From the NCBI GenBank assembly GCA_041664605.1, contig JBAYKO010000002.1:7453-71452 (forward strand): 64,000 nt of DNA, written 5' to 3'. This DNA comes from Minisyncoccota bacterium. GTDB lineage: Bacteria > Patescibacteriota > Minisyncoccia > Phycocordibacterales > UBA9973. The notes under the pieces are model-generated. The model was not told the DNA's origin and made no database searches. It was given only the letters and a program-made list of their open reading frames with translations. Both the position numbers and the translations under genes were made by a program. Numbering within the stretch: the first letter of the stretch is position 1; each line of letters begins with the position of its first letter. This document shows, piece after piece, positions 12,310-62,504 of this stretch.

Positions 12310-12460
12310 AATGACTATAAAAATAATGACCCAGCACTAATTTTATAATTGTCTTATCTTACTATTTTTCTGAAAAAAGGCAAATGATAACAAACGGAAA
12401 CCCACGTACACTAAATTAAAATTAGTGCTGGGTAAGGAAAATTACATTCCTTTCAGTCAT
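12310..12460. repeat. About 150-bp hairpin element in the rpsJ-rplC spacer (arms ...AATGACCCAGCACTAATTTTA / TAAAATTAGTGCTGGGTAAGG..., ~66-bp loop)
   Basis: Imperfect inverted repeat of ~40 bp arms. It belongs to the IR-65-IR family also seen at 22588, 23777, 42196 and 57315. Confidence 0.55.
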
Positions 12461-22515: not shown

Positions 22516-22587
22516 AATTAAACAATCAGTCTCGAAAGACTAGTAAGAATTACTTTACTATTTTAAGTAAAAAAAAGCAAGCCCGCA

Positions 22588-22675
22588 CACTTATTTTACT
22601 GTTGGGTGGCTTTTTTAAGCTCAAATTTTTTCTAATTCTATTAAAAACAACAATAAATAAGTGTGTGGGTAAGTT
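22588..22675. repeat. Hairpin repeat (arms GCCCGCACACTTATTT / AAATAAGTGTGTGGG) upstream of rpsL
   Basis: About 15-bp inverted repeat. It shares the 10-mer GCCCGCACAC with 57317-57326, next to tRNA-Gly. Confidence 0.5.
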
Positions 22676-22837
22676 TTTGTGGATAATAACCCTTGAAATC
22701 TTCCCCAAAAACACTAAAAAGAGTAGAATTAGGACAAAGATCGAGTTTACAAACTTTAAAAATTGATTTCTTAAGTCTACGAGAAATCACCTGTAATATT
22801 TACCCGCCTTTGGCTGGGACAGGTAAAAATTAAAAAT

Positions 22838-23751: not shown

Positions 23752-23776
23752 AATAATAAAAATTCGTATGGCGACC

Positions 23777-23878
23777 CCGCCCTAATTTTGACATTTAGAT
23801 TAAGGTGGTAAACGAAATGAATTAAGTAAATTATAAATTTTAAAGATAGATAGATTGAGCATCAAAATTAGGGCGGGG
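23777..23878. repeat. Perfect 17-bp inverted repeat (CCCCGCCCTAATTTTGA ... TCAAAATTAGGGCGGGG) with a 68-bp AT-rich loop
   Basis: Arms at 23777-23793 and 23862-23878 are exact reverse complements; it lies between divergent M50 and rpmB. Confidence 0.75.
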
Positions 23879-23913
23879 TGCTCATAAAATATATTCGCTA
23901 CGCTCATTATTTT

Positions 23914-34115: not shown

Positions 34116-35081
34116 TTACTGACAACCAGCGGGACAATCAGAATCATTATAATTTCCACCTGGCTTACATGGTCCAGCAGAAACTGTATGAGTAACAGAA
34201 TTTCCTGAATTACCGTTACTGTCAGTTACAGTTAAATTAATATTATAAACTAGAGGGTCTGTCGCTGTTGGCCCAGGTCTATCAAAAAGAAAAGTTCTTG
34301 GATTACCAGCAAATGTTTGACTAGGATAACCACCACCACTCTTTGTATATGAATAAGTTAGTGACCCAATTCCACCTTGTGATGTCCCCGTAAGTTGATA
34401 AGTTTTATCAGTACACTCAGTCCCAGTTTTATTTTGAGTAAAAGATGCAGTTACTGCTATATTAGCACTGCAATAATCCGGATTACCACCATTAATACCA
34501 GAACAATTCCAAGAATAAATATGCTGAATTGGTAGTGGGGTTGATGCTATACCAGAGTTACAAAGATTTGTAGGAGGAGATGTCACAAATTGACCATCTG
34601 ACGCACCACAAGCACCATCGATTGAGAAATCACAAATAAATAGTTTTCCTTCACTATCAGCACAAAGCTGTTTTCCTTCATTTCCAGTCAGAGAGCTGAC
34701 TCTCATTTTTCCTAAAGTATTATCAACTCCTTTAACTGTTAGGGCTTCAATATGGATGGCTGTTTCTGGATCTGTTTGTATAAGTTGAGTGTTTAAAACT
34801 GAAAGTTTTTGTGCAAATTGAGAATCTTGTGATGCTAAAAATCCAGCCACAGATAACCCTGCACTTTTTTCAAAAACAGAATTACCTTTATCTATGGGGC
34901 GACATGGATTTGAGTCTGGAAAAGATCCTGGATTATTTAGAGAAGATGATTCTGGTGTTATACAAGTATGACTATCTGATGAAACAATTTTAGAATTTCC
35001 AAAACTTAGATAACTAACAGCAATCCCAAAAACAAGCGCCAGTGATATTATTTTTATTGATTGTAATATTTCTTTTTTCAT
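34116..35081 (-). CDS. Secreted Cys-rich protein, paralog family A (start likely MKKEILQS)
   Basis: Conserved N-terminal signal MKKEILQ..KI..L.L....S.G and a Cys-rich module shared with 35242 and 36917 (VC....G.L..C.....GCG...GQ.....P..LC..G....W.W.C.G.NGG...C). Confidence 0.6.
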   Translation of the reverse strand: MKKEILQSIKIISLALVFGIAVSYLSFGNSKIVSSDSHTCITPESSSLNNPGSFPDSNPCRPIDKGNSVFEKSAGLSVAGFLASQDSQFAQKLSVLNTQLIQTDPETAIHIEALTVKGVDNTLGKMRVSSLTGNEGKQLCADSEGKLFICDFSIDGACGASDGQFVTSPPTNLCNSGIASTPLPIQHIYSWNCSGINGGNPDYCSANIAVTASFTQNKTGTECTDKTYQLTGTSQGGIGSLTYSYTKSGGGYPSQTFAGNPRTFLFDRPGPTATDPLVYNINLTVTDSNGNSGNSVTHTVSAGPCKPGGNYNDSDCPAGCQ

Positions 35082-35241
35082 CCTGTAGTGAATTTTCAAA
35101 TTGTTTTTTAAAACAGGTTTGAATTTTTAATTAATGTTTAATATTTTTTACGACTTTAATATTATTTTTTATTTTATTACCCCGTAATAATTTGAAAATC
35201 TGCTACGGGATTCATATTTTTGCTTTTATGCCAATTAGTTA

Positions 35242-42037: not shown

Positions 42038-42195
42038 AGTTTCAATAGCCCCTCCTTGAGACTTATTTTTTATTGTTTAAGAACTTTTAACACTTCTTAA
42101 GAAAGTGTTAGGCGAACATTTACACAGTAAGTGTTTTAGCCTTTTCTGCCCCAACTTTACCATATTTTTCAACGCAAGTCAAAGAAATGTGGATA

Positions 42196-42328
42196 ACCCC
42201 CACACCTATCCCGCCCTTATTCTGCTTTTCAATAACCACTCCTATTATAATCTCAACAACTTATCTAGGTTTAATATTTAAAGAACAGTCTATCTACAGA
42301 ATAAAAGCAAGGGCGGGACAGGTGTGGG
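42196..42328. repeat. MITE-like inverted-repeat element (arms CCCCACACCTATCCCGCCCTTATTCTGCTTT / CAGAATAAAAGCAAGGGCGGGACAGGTGTGGGG, 64-bp loop)
   Basis: ~30-bp imperfect inverted repeat. The core TTATTCTGCTTT...CAGAATAAAAGCAA is shared with the element at 57334-57440. Confidence 0.65.
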
Positions 42329-42434
42329 GGATAACCCGTGCATTCTCACTTCCGAAAAGGACCGCTCTTTTTGAGATTTAGTTTTACAAAAAATCCCCCG
42401 ATATCAATCGGGGAATTTTTATTTTCTCTATTTA

Positions 42435-42943: not shown

Positions 42944-43294
42944 TTGTGGGAAAAACCCCCACACCTTTTATTTTATTGTCTTAGGTCATATACCTGCACA
43001 ACCTTTCAAGAAGAAAGGTGTGGAGGTATAATTTTTTATATGTATTATTTATATATTCTAAAAAGTTTAAAAGATGAAAAATTGTATATTGGTTCAACTA
43101 ATGACCTAAGACGAAGACTTTCGGAACATAATAATGGCCTTAATCGTTCAACAAAAGCACGACTGCCATTTGAAATTAGGTATTACGAAGCTTATAAAAG
43201 TGAGTATGATGCTAGAAAAAGAGAATATTCATTAAAAAAAGATGGAAAGGCATTAGGGCAACTAAAAAAGAGAATATCCGAAAGTCTTCTATAA
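42944..43294 (+). CDS. GIY-YIG nuclease domain protein (likely starts at internal Met about 43040, ~85 aa)
   Basis: YYLYILKSLKDEKLYIGSTNDLRRRLSEHN is GIY-YIG. Flanked by CCCCCACACCTTTT (42956-42969) and its exact reverse complement AAAAGGTGTGGGGG (43298-43311). Confidence 0.7.
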   Translation: MWEKPPHLLFYCLRSYTCTTFQEERCGGIIFYMYYLYILKSLKDEKLYIGSTNDLRRRLSEHNNGLNRSTKARLPFEIRYYEAYKSEYDARKREYSLKKDGKALGQLKKRISESLL

Positions 43295-43364
43295 AACAAA
43301 AGGTGTGGGGGAAAAGTAAAAGCCCCCAACCGTGATTGGGGGCTTTTGAAAGTCATAAAAAATA

Positions 43365-45777: not shown

Positions 45778-46066
45778 ATTTAAGATCTTTTAAATTCTAG
45801 TACAATTGTATCATATTTAGATTGTTTTGTCAACCCAACATACTTACTTTGTTTTTCGGGATATATCTTTAAAATCAGCCTTCATTTATCTATGCAACAA
45901 AGTAAGTGTATGGGTCAACCCAATAAAATGTAACGATTTTGTCCCTCATTCGGCATAAATGATATAATGTAAAAAACTTCACCCGAAAAATGAAGTAAAA
46001 ATTATTAGTTAAAAATTTATTATTAATTATTAAATAAAAAATCACGAAAAAGAGTTTTGCTCTCAC

Positions 46067-56564: not shown

Positions 56565-57296
56565 TTAGATAAGTGTCGTTACCAAAAAAATAAATATCAC
56601 CCCAAAAATTGTAGCCAATAAAGTTTTAAAAGATGAATTTTCTCTGTGAGCTTCCGGTAAAATATCAGAGACCCCAATATACAAAAGAAAACCAGCAAAA
56701 AATCCTAGATAAATAATTAGCGCTCCCTTTGGAAGAGTAAAAAATAAAGTTGAAATTCCTCCAAGCACAGGCGCAAGTGCGCTAAAAAATAAAAACTTTT
56801 TTGCCCTACTCTCACTATTTTTATGATTCAACATTAATGAAACCGTGTTTAGCCCATCAGAAAAATCATGAGCAATCACAGCAAGCGCAATCAATATTCC
56901 TGTGGCTCCTGAAACCTGAAAACCAAGACCAATCGCAACACCATCTAAAAATGAATGCCCTATTAAGGCCATGGCTTGCGCTACACCAACCGTAGGATGT
57001 TTGTGTGGACCATAATCATCTTCATGACTGTGGTGAATTAAAATTGTTTTTTCAAGTGTATGAAAAAGTAAAAACGCAACAACAAGAGCAATCATTGGAT
57101 AAAGTGGATTCATTCCCGTCTCCCCTATTAAATTTATAATTTCAGGAAAAACATCAAAAGCAATAACCGCCAAAATAACCCCAGCGGTAAAACCAAGAAT
57201 TATTCGTAAATTTTTTTTAAATTTAAGACCAAAAAAACCCCCTAAAATAGTGGATATGAATGTAAGAAAAATAAAAAATAAAAATGATGGATTCAT
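56565..57296 (-). CDS. ZIP-family metal cation transporter (ZupT-like)
   Basis: HSFLDGVAIGLGF and AHDFSDGLNTV motifs, polytopic. The start is probably the internal Met (MNPSFLFF) because the upstream 27 nt form the GCGGGTACGCCCGC minihelix. Confidence 0.8.
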   Translation of the reverse strand: MNPSFLFFIFLTFISTILGGFFGLKFKKNLRIILGFTAGVILAVIAFDVFPEIINLIGETGMNPLYPMIALVVAFLLFHTLEKTILIHHSHEDDYGPHKHPTVGVAQAMALIGHSFLDGVAIGLGFQVSGATGILIALAVIAHDFSDGLNTVSLMLNHKNSESRAKKFLFFSALAPVLGGISTLFFTLPKGALIIYLGFFAGFLLYIGVSDILPEAHRENSSFKTLLATIFGVIFIFLVTTLI

Positions 57297-57444
57297 GGTT
57301 AAAATTAGCGGGTACGCCCGCACACTGACTTTGCCATTATTCTGCTTTTTAAATATAAAAAATTTATTTTAAATAACTTAACTGAACATAATTTGTGTTG
57401 AGACTATATCTATCGGCAGAATAAAAGCAATGGCAAAGTAAGTG

Positions 57445-57515
57445 TGCGGGTAGGGAGAATCGGACTCCCGTCTCATCCTTGGCAAGGACGTGTTCTACCA
57501 CTAAACCATACCCGC
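57445..57515 (-). tRNA. tRNA-Gly (anticodon GCC)
   Basis: Hand-folded cloverleaf: acceptor GCGGGTA/TACCCGC, D arm GTTT-AGTGGTA-GAAC, anticodon stem CGTCC/GGATG with loop TTGCCAA, T arm GGGAG-TCCGATT-CTCCC, discriminator A. Confidence 0.85.
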
Positions 57516-57634
57516 ATTATTTAATTTTTAATAAAAAGTAATTTTAATATAACAAAAAAAAGAGTTTTTTTCAAATTTCCAATTTAAAAGCCCCCAATTG
57601 GGGGCTTTAAATTTCAGCTGAAATTTGCAGATTT

Positions 57635-58666: not shown

Positions 58667-58791
58667 ATTGTCGGGGGTGCCGAGAATCTCCCCTTACTGG
58701 GGCTGGTGATTTTCCCATCTACTATATGGAAAATCCTTTCAATTCTCGACGCAGGTGAAGCAGTTCACCTGCTTCACCCCTCACTTGCGTG
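58667..58791 (-). ncRNA. Conserved tRNA-trailer / 5'-UTR structured element ending in a copy of the tRNA-Pro 3' T-loop-to-acceptor segment
   Basis: ~85% identical to 60480-60593, with compensatory stem changes between the copies. It ends 6 nt before the kinase ATG with GATTCTCGGCACCCCCGAC, versus the tRNA 3' end GATTCTCGGCACCCCGA. Confidence 0.55.
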
Positions 58792-60471: not shown

Positions 60472-60479
60472 AGGATATT

Positions 60480-60593
60480 GTCGGGATGGGAGAATCTCCC
60501 CTTACTGGGGCTGGTGATTTTCCCGTCTTCGACATGGAAAATCCTTTCGATTCTCCACGCAGATAAAGCAGTTTATCTGCTCATCTACGCTGG
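60480..60593 (-). ncRNA. Second copy of the conserved tRNA-trailer / 5'-UTR element, ending in a copy of the tRNA-Gly(TCC) 3' segment
   Basis: Shares AGAATCTCCCCTTACTGGGGCTGGTGATTTTCCC...ATGGAAAATCCTTTC.ATTCTC.ACGCAG with 58667-58791. Terminal GTCGGGATGGGAGAATC versus tRNA TGCGGGATGGGAGAATC. Confidence 0.55.
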
Positions 60594-60842: not shown

Positions 60843-60998
60843 CAAAGAGAGAGAAAATATTAACTGCTTAATATTTTTGATGCTTTGTGCGAGACGGAAG
60901 TATGTTTTTTCAGCAGAAAAAACAACTGAGTCAGGGTCGGGAAATTTTAAGAGTGGCTGACGAGTAAAATATTCCTGACCACAAAGACAACAATAACC

Positions 60999-62504
60999 AT
61001 GAAACATCAATTTAAAATACCAGAAGAAGTTTCACGTGTAACAGAAACTTTAGAAAAAGCGGGATTTGAAGCCTATCTTGTTGGTGGGTGTGTTCGTGAT
61101 ATCTTATCGGACAAAGAGCCTAAAGACTGGGATGTGACCACAAATGCTACACCTGAGCAGATAATTGGTTTGTTTGAAAAGACTTATTACGAGAACTCTT
61201 TTGGAACAGTAGGAGTGGTTGTTTCATGTGAAACTAATATTGTTTCCTCTTCTATAACCTATAACCTAGAACCTAGAACCTGTATCATTGAGATAACTCC
61301 TTATAGATTAGAAGCAAAATATAGCGATAATAGACATCCAGACTCTGTTTCATTCAGTAATAAACTAGAAGATGATCTTAAGAGACGTGATTTTACTGTA
61401 AATGCCATAGCTTATAGTGTTTCTAAAGGACAGTTTATTGACCTTTATAACGGACAAAAGGACATAAAGGACAAAATAATCAGAACGGTAGGAAATCCAA
61501 AAGACAGGTTCCAAGAAGACGCACTTAGGCTTTTAAGAGCCGTTAGGTTTTTCGCTCAGCTTGGTTTCGTGATAGAAAAAGAAACAGGGGATGCGATCTT
61601 AGAAAATGCCCATCTTTTAAAAAATATTTCCAAAGAAAGAATCCGTGATGAATTTATAAAAATAATAATGTCGGAAGATCCAATGAAGGGAATTATCATG
61701 GCAGAAAAATTTGGAATTTTAAAATACATAATTCCAGAACTTGAAATTATGATTGGAGTAAAACAAAACGGTGATCACATTTATGATGTTTGGGAACACA
61801 GTCTTCGTGCCCTGCAACATGGAGCTGATAGAAATTTTTCTTTGGAAGTTAGATTGGCGGCACTGCTTCATGATATTGGAAAACCAAAAACTCGTTTTTG
61901 GTCAAAAGAAAAAAATGATTACACATTTTATGGTCATGATGTTGTTAGTGAAAGAATCACAAAAAAAATTCTTGATGATTTAAAATTTCCCAAAAAAACA
62001 ATTGAAACTGTCTCAAAACTCGTTAGAAATCATATGTTTTTTTCAGATATTGAAAAAATTACGCTTTCAGCAGTGAGAAGAATTGTAAGGAATGTTGGTG
62101 CAGATAATGTTTGGGATTTGATGAAAGTAAGAGCCTGTGATCGTATTGGAATGGGAAAGCCAAAAGAAGCTCCTTATCGTTTACGCAAATATGAATCAAT
62201 GATTGAAGAAGCAATGCGTTCTCCTGTATCTGTTGGAATGTTAAAAATTGATGGGTTAAAAATTATGAAAATCACAAATGAAAAACCAGGGAAAAAAATT
62301 GGCTATCTTTTGCATGCACTTCTTGAAGAAGTTTTTGATCATCCAGAATTAAACACTGAAGAATTTTTAGAAAATAGAGCGGTGGAATTAATAAAACTTT
62401 CTGAAAAAGAATTGCACGATCTCGGTGAAAAAGGGAAGGAGAAAAAAGATATTGAAGAAGAAAAAGAACTCGAAATAATCCGCAAGAGACACGGGGTGAG
62501 ATAA
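60999..62504 (+). CDS. cca: CCA-adding enzyme / poly(A) polymerase family with HD domain
   Basis: GGCVRDIL...DWDVTT head motif, RRDFTVNA and HD domain HDIGK. Contains an in-frame heptad insertion (61253-61283, SITYNLEPRTC). Confidence 0.88.
   Translation: MKHQFKIPEEVSRVTETLEKAGFEAYLVGGCVRDILSDKEPKDWDVTTNATPEQIIGLFEKTYYENSFGTVGVVVSCETNIVSSSITYNLEPRTCIIEITPYRLEAKYSDNRHPDSVSFSNKLEDDLKRRDFTVNAIAYSVSKGQFIDLYNGQKDIKDKIIRTVGNPKDRFQEDALRLLRAVRFFAQLGFVIEKETGDAILENAHLLKNISKERIRDEFIKIIMSEDPMKGIIMAEKFGILKYIIPELEIMIGVKQNGDHIYDVWEHSLRALQHGADRNFSLEVRLAALLHDIGKPKTRFWSKEKNDYTFYGHDVVSERITKKILDDLKFPKKTIETVSKLVRNHMFFSDIEKITLSAVRRIVRNVGADNVWDLMKVRACDRIGMGKPKEAPYRLRKYESMIEEAMRSPVSVGMLKIDGLKIMKITNEKPGKKIGYLLHALLEEVFDHPELNTEEFLENRAVELIKLSEKELHDLGEKGKEKKDIEEEKELEIIRKRHGVR
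61253..61283 (+). repeat. CTATAAC/CTAGAAC heptad array inserted in-frame inside cca
   Basis: CTATAACCTATAACCTAGAACCTAGAACCTG is translated as ITYNLEPRT within the head domain. Confidence 0.7.

Follow-up and report, generated by a model that had tools for sequence, protein, structure and literature searches.

Bacterial miniature inverted-repeat transposable elements (MITEs) and foldback elements, for instance Correia/NEMIS in Neisseria, ERIC in enterobacteria and the palindromic elements of Rickettsia, are, together with the mobile insertion cassettes (MICs), the described systems closest to the element reported here. This element, a hairpin of 134 bp, is located in a stretch of 64,000 nucleotides from a Minisyncoccota bacterium (contig JBAYKO010000002.1; in the following, the window means this whole stretch), where it occupies positions 57317-57450 of the minus strand, at the end of a tRNA-Gly(GCC) gene and upstream of a gene for a ZIP metal transporter. 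With a probability of roughly 87%, it is a non-autonomous foldback MITE from a family of terminal repeats associated with a GIY-YIG nuclease gene, which inserted in the tRNA-Gly gene and functionally replaced its 3' end, and the acceptor-like minihelix in front of the ZIP gene is a by-product of this insertion. In common with MITEs and MICs, the members of this family are short (68-135 bp) and non-coding, carry terminal inverted repeats, are flanked by duplications of fixed length and are dispersed in intergenic regions; their transcript can form a hairpin, and there are coding relatives with the same ends. They differ in that the sole gene found between the ends here encodes a GIY-YIG nuclease of 83-87 amino acids (aa) and not a DDE, HUH or serine transposase, that the whole stem and not the termini alone is kept complementary by compensatory changes, and that one subfamily regenerates the end of a tRNA gene.

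REP/IS200-type elements are not known to possess target duplications or true terminal repeats, whereas the family described here has both, with duplications of 4 bp, and the enzyme is of the GIY-YIG and not of the HUH tyrosine type. Nevertheless, there is a parallel to the REPIN-RAYT system, in which REP doublets are mobilised by a single-copy HUH/Y1 transposase (PMC3116915, PMC2817692), since in both cases a small single-copy gene, maybe retained vertically, is flanked by palindromic repeats that are also dispersed as non-coding hairpins. A Y1/HUH (RAYT) gene was absent from the gene tables of the loci examined. GIY-YIG homing endonucleases such as I-TevI or T4 SegB, the latter from a phage tRNA gene cluster, likewise combine a GIY-YIG domain in a selfish element with an association to tRNA genes and a site preference, but they have DNA-binding extensions and are found without terminal repeats or duplications, while the proteins of the present family consist of the bare domain of 83-87 aa and their elements occupy many unrelated sites. 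As with tyrosine-integrase islands and prophages that target tRNA genes, the element sits in the 3' part of such a gene, the gene is rebuilt and the displaced end is found at the far junction. However, those integrative elements are kilobases in size, whereas the elements here have 134-320 bp and no integrase, and the shared sequence amounts to a 6-7-nt repeat terminus plus the 4-bp duplication instead of an att core of 15-50 nt. In eukaryotes, the Dada elements are kilobase-sized DDE DNA transposons that hit specific positions in tRNA and snRNA genes. The family described here shares with them the terminal repeats, the target duplication and the recurrent use of one position in a small-RNA gene without destruction of that gene.

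The tRNA-Gly(GCC) gene (57445-57515, minus strand), already proposed in an initial annotation made from the sequence alone, is recognized by ARAGORN as well as by Rfam (66.9 bits). The same annotation described an imperfect inverted repeat of approximately 30 bp with a loop of about 66 nt; we measured 29 pairs, divided into stems of 21 bp and 8 bp, and a loop of approximately 73 nt. The outer arms (57429-57450 and 57317-57338) comprise 22 nt each and are 95% complementary according to a repeat search. A 6-nt bulge, GCTTTT (57423-57428), sets them off from the inner arms (57415-57422 and 57339-57346), which carry the segment ATTCTGC/GCAGAAT and surround an AT-rich loop. Read on the minus strand, the end of the tRNA gene (...GATTCTCCCTACCCGCA) is followed by CACTTACTTTGCCATT-GCTTTT-ATTCTGCC, an AT-rich stretch and AGCAGAAT-AATGGCAAAGTCAGTGTGCGGG, and then by CGTA, CCCGC, a single T, AATTTTAACC and the ATG of the ZIP gene. 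Homology to family copies elsewhere places the boundaries of the element at 57450, where it starts with CCCGCACAC, and at 57317, where it ends with GTGTGCGGG; the assignment also draws on the covariance model R1, whose training set included this copy itself.

As the initial annotation had noticed, the outer arm of the hairpin overlaps the 3' end of the tRNA gene, and a minihelix (GTGTGCGGGCGTACCCGC, 57325-57308) precedes the ZIP gene. The overlap consists of the bases CCCGCA (57450-57445), which are acceptor positions 68-72 and the discriminator A73 of the tRNA and, at the same time, the terminal repeat of the element, so that the host-derived part of the gene is confined to 57451-57515. On one side, the element is flanked by CCTA (57451-57454, minus strand), still within the T-stem/acceptor junction of the tRNA, and on the other side by CGTA (57313-57316), which differs from it by one substitution. 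Next to CGTA lies the displaced original 3' end of the tRNA, CCCGC plus a T to which the discriminator A has decayed (57307-57312, minus strand), and the heptamer GCGGGTA forms a direct repeat at 57308 and 57446.

This arrangement would be explained by the following sequence of events. Before the insertion, the locus would have read ...GATTCTCC-CTA-CCCGC-(A)-AATTTTAACC-ATG, with an intact tRNA-Gly gene ending 10 nt before the ZIP start, and an element-free allele is expected to read GATTCTCCCTACCCGC[AT]AATTTTAACCATGAATCC. The element would have entered between CCTA and CCCGCA under duplication of CCTA. Because its terminus itself reads CCCGCA, the insertion would have rebuilt acceptor positions 68-72 and A73, and the old end would have been pushed to the far side, where the element's last bases now border on CGTA, the former CCTA duplicate, and this on the orphan CCCGC(T); later drift would have changed CCTA to CGTA and A to T. 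The minihelix would pair because the repeat ends are mutually complementary and the left end equals the tRNA end, and the remnant would touch the ZIP start because an insertion within the last bases of a tRNA gene leaves the old end beside the ATG. The earlier suggestion that hairpin and minihelix form one designed element is not supported, since the minihelix is fully explained by the right repeat end, the duplication and the displaced tRNA end. The present 71-nt tRNA-Gly is identical to uninterrupted genes in seven other loci (L026, L027, L033, L047, L058, L065 and L072), and the discriminator is an A in 56 of 64 orthologous tRNA loci.

The ZIP open reading frame (ORF; 56565-57296, minus strand, Pfam Zip) begins with ATG 57296, 10 nt past the displaced tRNA end. 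This start gives the 243-aa form present in NCBI and JGI, and homologues have about 240 aa; judged from these sequences, ATG 57296 is the real start. The gene call of the ENA contig has 252 aa and starts from GTG 57323 inside the element, so that the resulting protein would include residues read from the end of the transposon, from the target duplication and from the orphaned tRNA end. No ORF of at least 50 aa lies wholly within the 134-bp element, the sole overlapping one being this GTG-57323 extension of the ZIP frame. A tRNA gene whose last six bases stem from a transposon end is easily misread in annotation. In the relatives L122 and L123 (ZIP identity 71%), the upstream tRNA genes are tRNA-Pro(TGG) and tRNA-Gly(TCC), and the ZIP ATG follows 22 nt on without a hairpin. 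The nearest ZIP homologues thus show a tRNA followed by ZIP without the element, but with a different tRNA upstream. According to these sequences, a tRNA gene abutting the ZIP ORF is the ordinary state in the relatives, and in the window the tRNA gene probably abutted the ZIP ORF already before the insertion.

The element is not unique to this locus. A search of one genome per species with the inner core pattern only (GCTTTTATTCTG, 50-80 nt, AAAAGCAGAAT) resulted in nine loci, three of them chance matches in coding DNA and six located in metagenome-assembled genomes (MAGs) of Patescibacteria (L003, L006-L010). All six copies from the MAGs also possess the outer arms CCCCCACACCTAT/ATAGGTGTGGGGG, which were absent from the query. 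The order is always CCCCCACACCTAT, about nine variable bases, GCTTTTATTCTG, a variable AT-rich loop of approximately 65 nt and AAAAGCAGAATAA, after which come bases complementary to the nine variable ones and finally ATAGGTGTGGGGG. Full-length copies have a constant length of 131-135 bp and termini of the form CCC(C/G)CACAC...GTGTG(G/C)GGG. RNAalifold predicts 29 pairs in stems of 21 bp and 8 bp with a conserved 6-nt bulge between them; ten of the 29 pairs show compensatory double changes and almost none is broken. All eight full-length copies are intergenic and their orientation relative to the neighbouring genes is mixed, which argues for an element that acts at the level of DNA and not for a strand-specific RNA gene. 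Neither in the window nor in related loci did Rfam find anything besides tRNAs, at gathering or at permissive thresholds; the best non-tRNA match of Rfam 15 on the element is a plant miRNA hairpin with 28.8 bits against a gathering score of 85.

Within the window, the core had been noticed before at 42196-42328, and this site proved to be a second full-length copy of 134 bp (42197-42330, minus strand) with the termini CCCCCACACC and a perfect ATAA duplication within TGTGGATAA|CCCG. The covariance model additionally detects members at 42956-43026, 22582-22669 and 45834-45914, and a weaker match at 12329-12433. The copy at 22582-22669 (plus strand, 88 bp) is degenerate, has CCCGCACACTTAT termini of the same subfamily as the copy in the tRNA gene and is flanked by CAAG/TAAG, whereas that at 45834-45914 (plus strand, 81 bp), also degenerate, begins with CCCAACATACTTACTTTG and shows a perfect TCAA duplication. 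Members in other loci (L003, L010, L018, L019, L043 and L096) belong to the same model, and the family is spread through the Patescibacteria, including MAGs labelled as Paceibacterota, Nomurabacteria and Saccharibacteria. The locus at 57 kb therefore exposes a widespread repeat family of this phylum whose only associated gene encodes a minimal GIY-YIG nuclease. One member of 140 bp in L018 (9687-9826), for which the CAAG duplication is perfect, has taken up an entire tRNA-Gly(CCC) gene as cargo and itself sits in the apparent orphan 3' half of another tRNA-Gly gene. Intergenic inverted repeats with AT-rich loops of 70-90 nt also occur at 23767-23886, 12329-12433 and 35080-35211 of the window; two of them have CCC(A/C)GC(A/C)C-TAATTTT(G)A arms and may represent a further foldback family, and no clear target duplication was seen at them.

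Two observations speak for the mobility of the family. The 4-bp sequences flanking the elements form a perfect repeat in 14 of 22 cases and match at three or more positions in 20 of 22, compared to 0 of 22 and 1 of 22, respectively, in a control with an offset of 5 bases further out. Examples of such duplications are TTTA, CTTG, TAAA, TCAA, ATAA, TGTG, TCTA, CAAG, AAAA, TTGA and CCTA. In addition, there is a pair of an empty and a filled site: L095 reads ...GCATCTACACCCCC, while L096, L097, L098 and L101 read ...GCATCTA[67-bp hairpin element]TCTACACCCCC. The flanks of these loci are 95-100% identical and the difference is a clean indel of 71 nt, which corresponds to the 67-bp member plus TCTA. 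The proposal that the inverted repeat is a mobile MITE targeting tRNA 3' ends is thus borne out with regard to mobility, with terminal repeats, 4-bp duplications and the empty/filled pair. With regard to the target it applies to one subfamily with the terminus CCCGCAC, which is found recurrently at the 3' ends of tRNA-Gly genes; the family as a whole resides mostly in ordinary intergenic DNA.

The same junction has been occupied in three tRNA-Gly contexts, namely two GCC isodecoders and one TCC. In L016/L029, a coding GIY-YIG element with perfect 20-bp repeats (CCCGCACACTTACTTGTTGA) is located at the junction used in the window, here with a perfect CCTA...CCTA duplication and the displaced end CCCGCA. 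In L125, such an element occupies the equivalent position of a tRNA-Gly(TCC) gene (junction ...CTAT|CCCGCA, duplication CTAT), its ORF is antisense to the tRNA and an orphan CCCGCAC is present at the far side. L125 was one of four look-ups of proteins of a second GIY-YIG subfamily, which had been chosen regardless of tRNAs, and the only one of them in a tRNA-Gly gene. Approximately 50 further distinct tRNA-Gly loci share this T-arm and acceptor but contain no element of the GIY-YIG/MITE family. Metagenomes were also scanned with the 3' half of the tRNA-Gly of the window. Of 55 distinct tRNA-Gly loci of Patescibacteria, 11 repeat the 3' end of the tRNA within 400 nt downstream and none does so upstream. 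This is well beyond chance and agrees with the enrichment of acceptor-end copies past tRNAs postulated by the initial annotation. With about a fifth of the sampled loci carrying such a copy, the 3' ends of tRNA genes appear as repeated landing sites for small insertions, a pattern that is partly explained by the GIY-YIG/MITE family (L016/L029 and the window).

A more general preference is also visible. CCC follows directly after the duplication in 7 of 50 outward flanks, compared to a background of 0.7% (P ~6e-8), and several targets resemble GTGG-N4-CCC, including the DnaA-box-like TGTGGATAACCC (42 kb in the window, L085, L105, L112 and L126). Insertions in the DnaA-box-like sequence TGTGGATAA(CCC) were noted at 42179-42196, 42331-42340 and 22676-22690 of the window and in the same four loci. 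The cumulative GC skew of the window has its minimum at 40-44 kb and again at 56-60 kb, and an origin near 42-43 kb is possible on this basis. We considered whether the 42-kb copy, which has perfect DnaA boxes beside it and is close to a skew minimum, is itself a replication origin and rejected this, as its neighbours are nusA and the trigger factor gene and not dnaA. Since this copy is a family member with a duplication of its own, a preferred target is the better interpretation of the DnaA-box-like sequence. Many tRNA-Gly(GCC) loci of Patescibacteria are followed by clusters of TGTGGATAA or TGGGGATAA boxes, often together with a UPF0102 (yraN-like) gene.

The coding members of the family have 297-356 bp and consist of terminal repeats of 20-24 bp around a single GIY-YIG gene of 83-87 codons, the stop codon of which lies just within the right repeat or abuts it. 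The putative autonomous member of the window (42956-43311, plus strand, 356 bp) is bounded by the terminal repeats CCCCCACACCTTT and AAAGGTGTGGGGG with an AAAA duplication on both sides. Its one ORF (43040-43294) encodes a protein of 84 aa, which matches PF01541 with 65.3 bits (cut-off 22.6, E=6e-18) and whose nearest relatives of solved structure are the UPF0213 proteins BH0048 (1zg2, E=1e-5) and EF2693, SLX1 being a weaker match. The left end of this element is a complete nested mini-hairpin of 71 bp (42956-43026), and its length is 356 bp instead of about 315 bp. Immediately internal to the left repeat, a TATAAT box precedes the ATG by 8 nt, which points to a very short leader. The same layout, with repeats that begin CCCCCACACCTTT, is shared by L075, L085, L105 and L112, which together with the window element form one subfamily, and by L016/L029; apart from the window copy, these elements have 302-318 bp. 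Their duplications are TTGA, ATAA, AAAA and CCTA, those of L085 and L112 matching at three of four positions.

More than 360 close homologues of the GIY-YIG protein of the window (73-92% identity) were found, and where the source is named, it is nearly always Patescibacteria. A second protein subfamily, approximately 60% identical, has more than 214 homologues, nearly all from Patescibacteria where the source is named, and comes with the repeat variant CCCGCACACTTAC in L016/L029, L125, L128 and L130, while the left end in L126 is CCCGAACAC. In 16 sequences from both subfamilies, the residues Y3, Y5, Y16, G18, R26, E29, H30, N31, E50 and E62 are invariant, so that the catalytic-type pattern of GIY-YIG proteins (Tyr-Tyr, Tyr-x-Gly, Arg, His-Asn, Glu) is kept. 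In total, the same termini bracket a GIY-YIG ORF in seven elements whose termini are clear, one of them from the window, mostly with a perfect 4-bp duplication. In or beside these elements, the gene tables of the loci examined list no transposase or integrase gene. A scan of viral contigs with the right end of the GIY-YIG element gave nothing. In L127, a deletion has immobilised the GIY-YIG element: compared to L128 (at about 850-900), 30 nt between two GATAAAAAAG repeats are missing and, with them, the right terminal repeat.

The GIY-YIG protein might be the mobilising enzyme of the family. It would recognize the terminal heptamer at the ends of the element and also as a half-site of the target, N4|CCCNCAC or GTGG-N4-CCC, and would cut with a stagger of 4 nt, the gaps being filled by host repair. 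Candidate cleavage substrates of the 84-aa protein are the repeat junction, the tRNA-Gly site CCTA|CCCGCAC and TGTGGATAACCCC. The tRNA-Gly gene could be a hot spot because the 3' strand of its acceptor (CCCGCAC) mimics the repeat terminus and because an insertion there would be harmless. That the nuclease is the engine of movement has, on the sequences compared here, a chance that comes close to even. The more far-reaching proposal that the 84-aa protein is a transposase of a new superfamily of prokaryotic DNA transposons, which with about 300-320 bp would be the smallest autonomous ones known, with a swarm of MITEs and tRNA-Gly as a safe harbour, is tentative, and the odds are slightly against it. 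If the protein does drive the movement, it would represent a new enzyme class for bacterial transposition and the elements a very small DNA-insertion system with a site preference. The elements of about 310 bp may be an undescribed kind of bacterial transposon: literature searches for GIY-YIG proteins in connection with terminal inverted repeats, target-site duplications, MITEs, Patescibacteria or UPF0213 revealed no such element, though their coverage was incomplete and the novelty is provisional.

Several points weigh against this picture, both for the insertion and for its engine. The duplication at the copy in the tRNA gene is imperfect (CCTA versus CGTA) and the displaced discriminator is T and not the ancestral A, so that two later substitutions must be assumed. 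An element-free allele of the exact tRNA-ZIP junction was not found among the relatives, the nearest of which are only 71% identical in the ZIP protein, and a look-up with an HU protein for strain variation at the source locus gave the identical contig only. The hairpin trailers behind tRNA-Gly in L017, L030, L032, L041 and L064 are not cleanly reducible to a repeat plus a 4-bp duplication, and if a MITE is recognized only at its ends, one would not usually expect a variable stem to stay perfectly complementary. With regard to the nuclease, the GIY-YIG element of the window has termini of the CCCCCAC type and the copy in the tRNA gene those of the CCCGCAC type, for which no cognate partner was seen in the 64 kb. 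The GIY-YIG locus of L030 has different terminal repeats (GCCCCGTTAGAAACTCAAT), the right terminus of L095 is degenerate, L126 combines a mismatched left terminus with a 5-bp GATAA repeat, and in L018, where the homologue is weaker (35% identity), direct repeats of about 40 nt take the place of the terminal repeats. Moreover, to our knowledge, GIY-YIG enzymes are nucleases only, and we know of no strand-transfer chemistry for them. Finally, the gene is apparently present in a single copy per genome and is located upstream of nusA in two genomes, which means that it could be a passenger or a resident.

The trailers of L017, L030, L032, L041 and L064 deserve a separate remark. They extend 75-110 nt past the tRNA-Gly gene; their first bases are the CCCGCAC of the tRNA, and their far end forms an acceptor-like minihelix such as GTGCGGAGTATGG-TAA-CCCATACCGCAC. 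Possibly, they represent ancient and degraded family members that used the same hot spot.

The main rival to a GIY-YIG engine is a conventional transposase, for example of the DDE type, that is encoded elsewhere and mobilises the hairpins in trans as ordinary MITEs or mobile insertion cassettes. The GIY-YIG gene would then have the role of cargo or of a free-standing homing endonuclease gene which settled in one hairpin copy and spreads among copies via homology of the arms. The tRNA-end remnant would have arisen in the same way, and only the engine would differ. GIY-YIG proteins are indeed known for nuclease and not for strand-transfer activity, the window contains a single GIY-YIG copy but at least five non-coding ones, and the complete mini-hairpin at 42956-43026 lies beside the ORF as if the gene had adjoined a pre-existing element. 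The position of the gene upstream of nusA in two genomes and the tRNA gene carried by the repeats in L018, which shows that other cargo is possible, fit this as well. On the other hand, no transposase gene was found between or beside the repeats in the loci examined, and insertion sequences are said to be scarce in these small genomes. Furthermore, the ORF fills the element in seven elements and in two protein subfamilies, each with a matching repeat variant, its stop codon is placed at the right repeat and boxes similar to a -10 region occur just inside the left repeat. The protein is also better conserved than the adjacent NusA: when the window is set against L085, the identity amounts to 88% for the nuclease and to about 65% for NusA. 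Taken together, mobilisation in trans is a realistic alternative, but the odds are against it.

In contrast, it is very unlikely that hairpin and minihelix constitute a selected RNA device that acts in cis, either as an acceptor mimic for processing by RNase P, RNase Z or the CCA enzyme or in the control of ZIP translation. Such a function could be suspected since, behind each of the three minus-strand tRNA genes of the window, the 3' end of that gene recurs 7-10 nt ahead of the next ATG and since 3'-end copies are enriched downstream of tRNA-Gly genes in Patescibacteria. The remnant hairpin is, in addition, similar to a terminator: GCGGG-CGTA-CCCGC (57308-57321, minus strand), with a short, all-GC stem of 5 bp and a 4-nt loop, is followed by TAATTTT and passes a consensus scan. 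The predicted fold of an RNA comprising tRNA, element and remnant contains the full hairpin of the element in its minimum-energy structure (-78 kcal/mol, z = -6.5), and in this fold the 5' strand of the tRNA pairs with the remnant and not with the repeat-derived end. However, repeat, duplication and displaced end account for every base, the same element exists at sites without a tRNA and in both orientations, and in the relatives the ZIP gene follows a tRNA directly, with no device of this kind in between. The remnants are also decayed: here, duplication and discriminator have one substitution each, and the other two remnants each contain an indel. Any current role of the hairpin or the terminator-like structure in tRNA 3' processing or in insulation of the ZIP gene would be secondary to the insertion, and, according to the predicted fold, the element could interfere with the processing of the tRNA precursor or be accommodated in it. 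A promoter-like site (TTGAAA-17-TATATT with TG, 57546-57574, minus strand), found upstream of the tRNA gene by a consensus scan, probably drives the tRNA and possibly, by read-through, the ZIP gene.

It is extremely improbable that inverted repeat and acceptor copy go back to a local, non-mobile rearrangement, such as a palindrome that arose by snap-back or template switching at the 3' end of the tRNA gene: perfect palindromes including 21 nt of a tRNA 3' end do occur at L019, L023, L025 and L062, and correction of quasi-palindromes could explain the compensatory changes, but arms, bulge, core and length are common to copies at unrelated loci of several genomes, each with its own 4-bp duplication. 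An invertible promoter or a palindrome bound by a regulator was also considered and rejected, because the arms vary in sequence from copy to copy and every copy is flanked by a target duplication of its own.

The initial annotation had further claimed that three tRNA genes of the window are followed by a copy of their own acceptor end near the next gene, all according to the same logic. The copies do exist, that of tRNA-Pro at 58671-58688 and that of tRNA-Gly(TCC) at 60482-60496, and each of the three loci leaves its own 3'-end copy beside an ORF; the logic is shared only to this extent, as the elements behind tRNA-Pro and tRNA-Gly(TCC) belong to a different class. These trailers of about 115 nt (58671-58791 and 60478-60593, minus strand) consist of a hairpin with a AACUGCUU loop, a complement of the T-stem/T-loop, a stretch of 35 nt identical in both copies and a slightly decayed copy of the tRNA 3' end of 15-18 nt. 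The T-stem/T-loop complement fits the respective upstream tRNA (CGAGAAT versus GGAGAATC). The same architecture is present after tRNA-Gly in six distinct metagenomic loci and after another tRNA in L017. Taking the window and these loci (L017, L019, L042, L055, L059, L065 and L069) together, the elements of this class are approximately 105-170 nt long and include a structured module and a tRNA 3'-end copy of 15-21 nt, and the complement changes together with the tRNA, be it Pro, Gly-TCC, Gly-GCC or the other tRNA in L017. L019 and L055 contain apparent tandem arrays with progressively decayed copies, while orthologous tRNAs in L122 and L125 are without such a trailer. Rfam gave no match for the trailers of the second class, terminal repeats of the GIY-YIG type are absent from them, and no recombinase gene lies beside them. 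This class has the appearance of a further small insertion type with a specificity for the 3' regions of tRNA genes. For the trailers of tRNA-Pro and tRNA-Gly(TCC), a reading as guide RNA, similar to those of TnpB or the bridge RNA of IS110, is conceivable; a neighbouring nuclease or recombinase gene was not seen.

The hairpin with the AACUGCUU loop is common to the trailers of tRNA-Arg (60844-60900, plus strand), tRNA-Pro (58745-58766, minus strand), tRNA-Gly(TCC) (60553-60574, minus strand) and several metagenomic tRNA-Gly genes. It may be a native signal for tRNA processing or termination. In the trailer of tRNA-Arg, the outer pairing GCACAAAG/CTTTGTGC takes in the last bases of the tRNA. 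Among the four tRNA genes of the window, only tRNA-Gly(TCC) encodes its CCA, the other three being without it (positions inspected: 57442-57444, 58789-58791, 60591-60593 and 60844-60846), and a gene for a CCA-adding enzyme (60999-62504) adjoins the tRNA-Arg gene.

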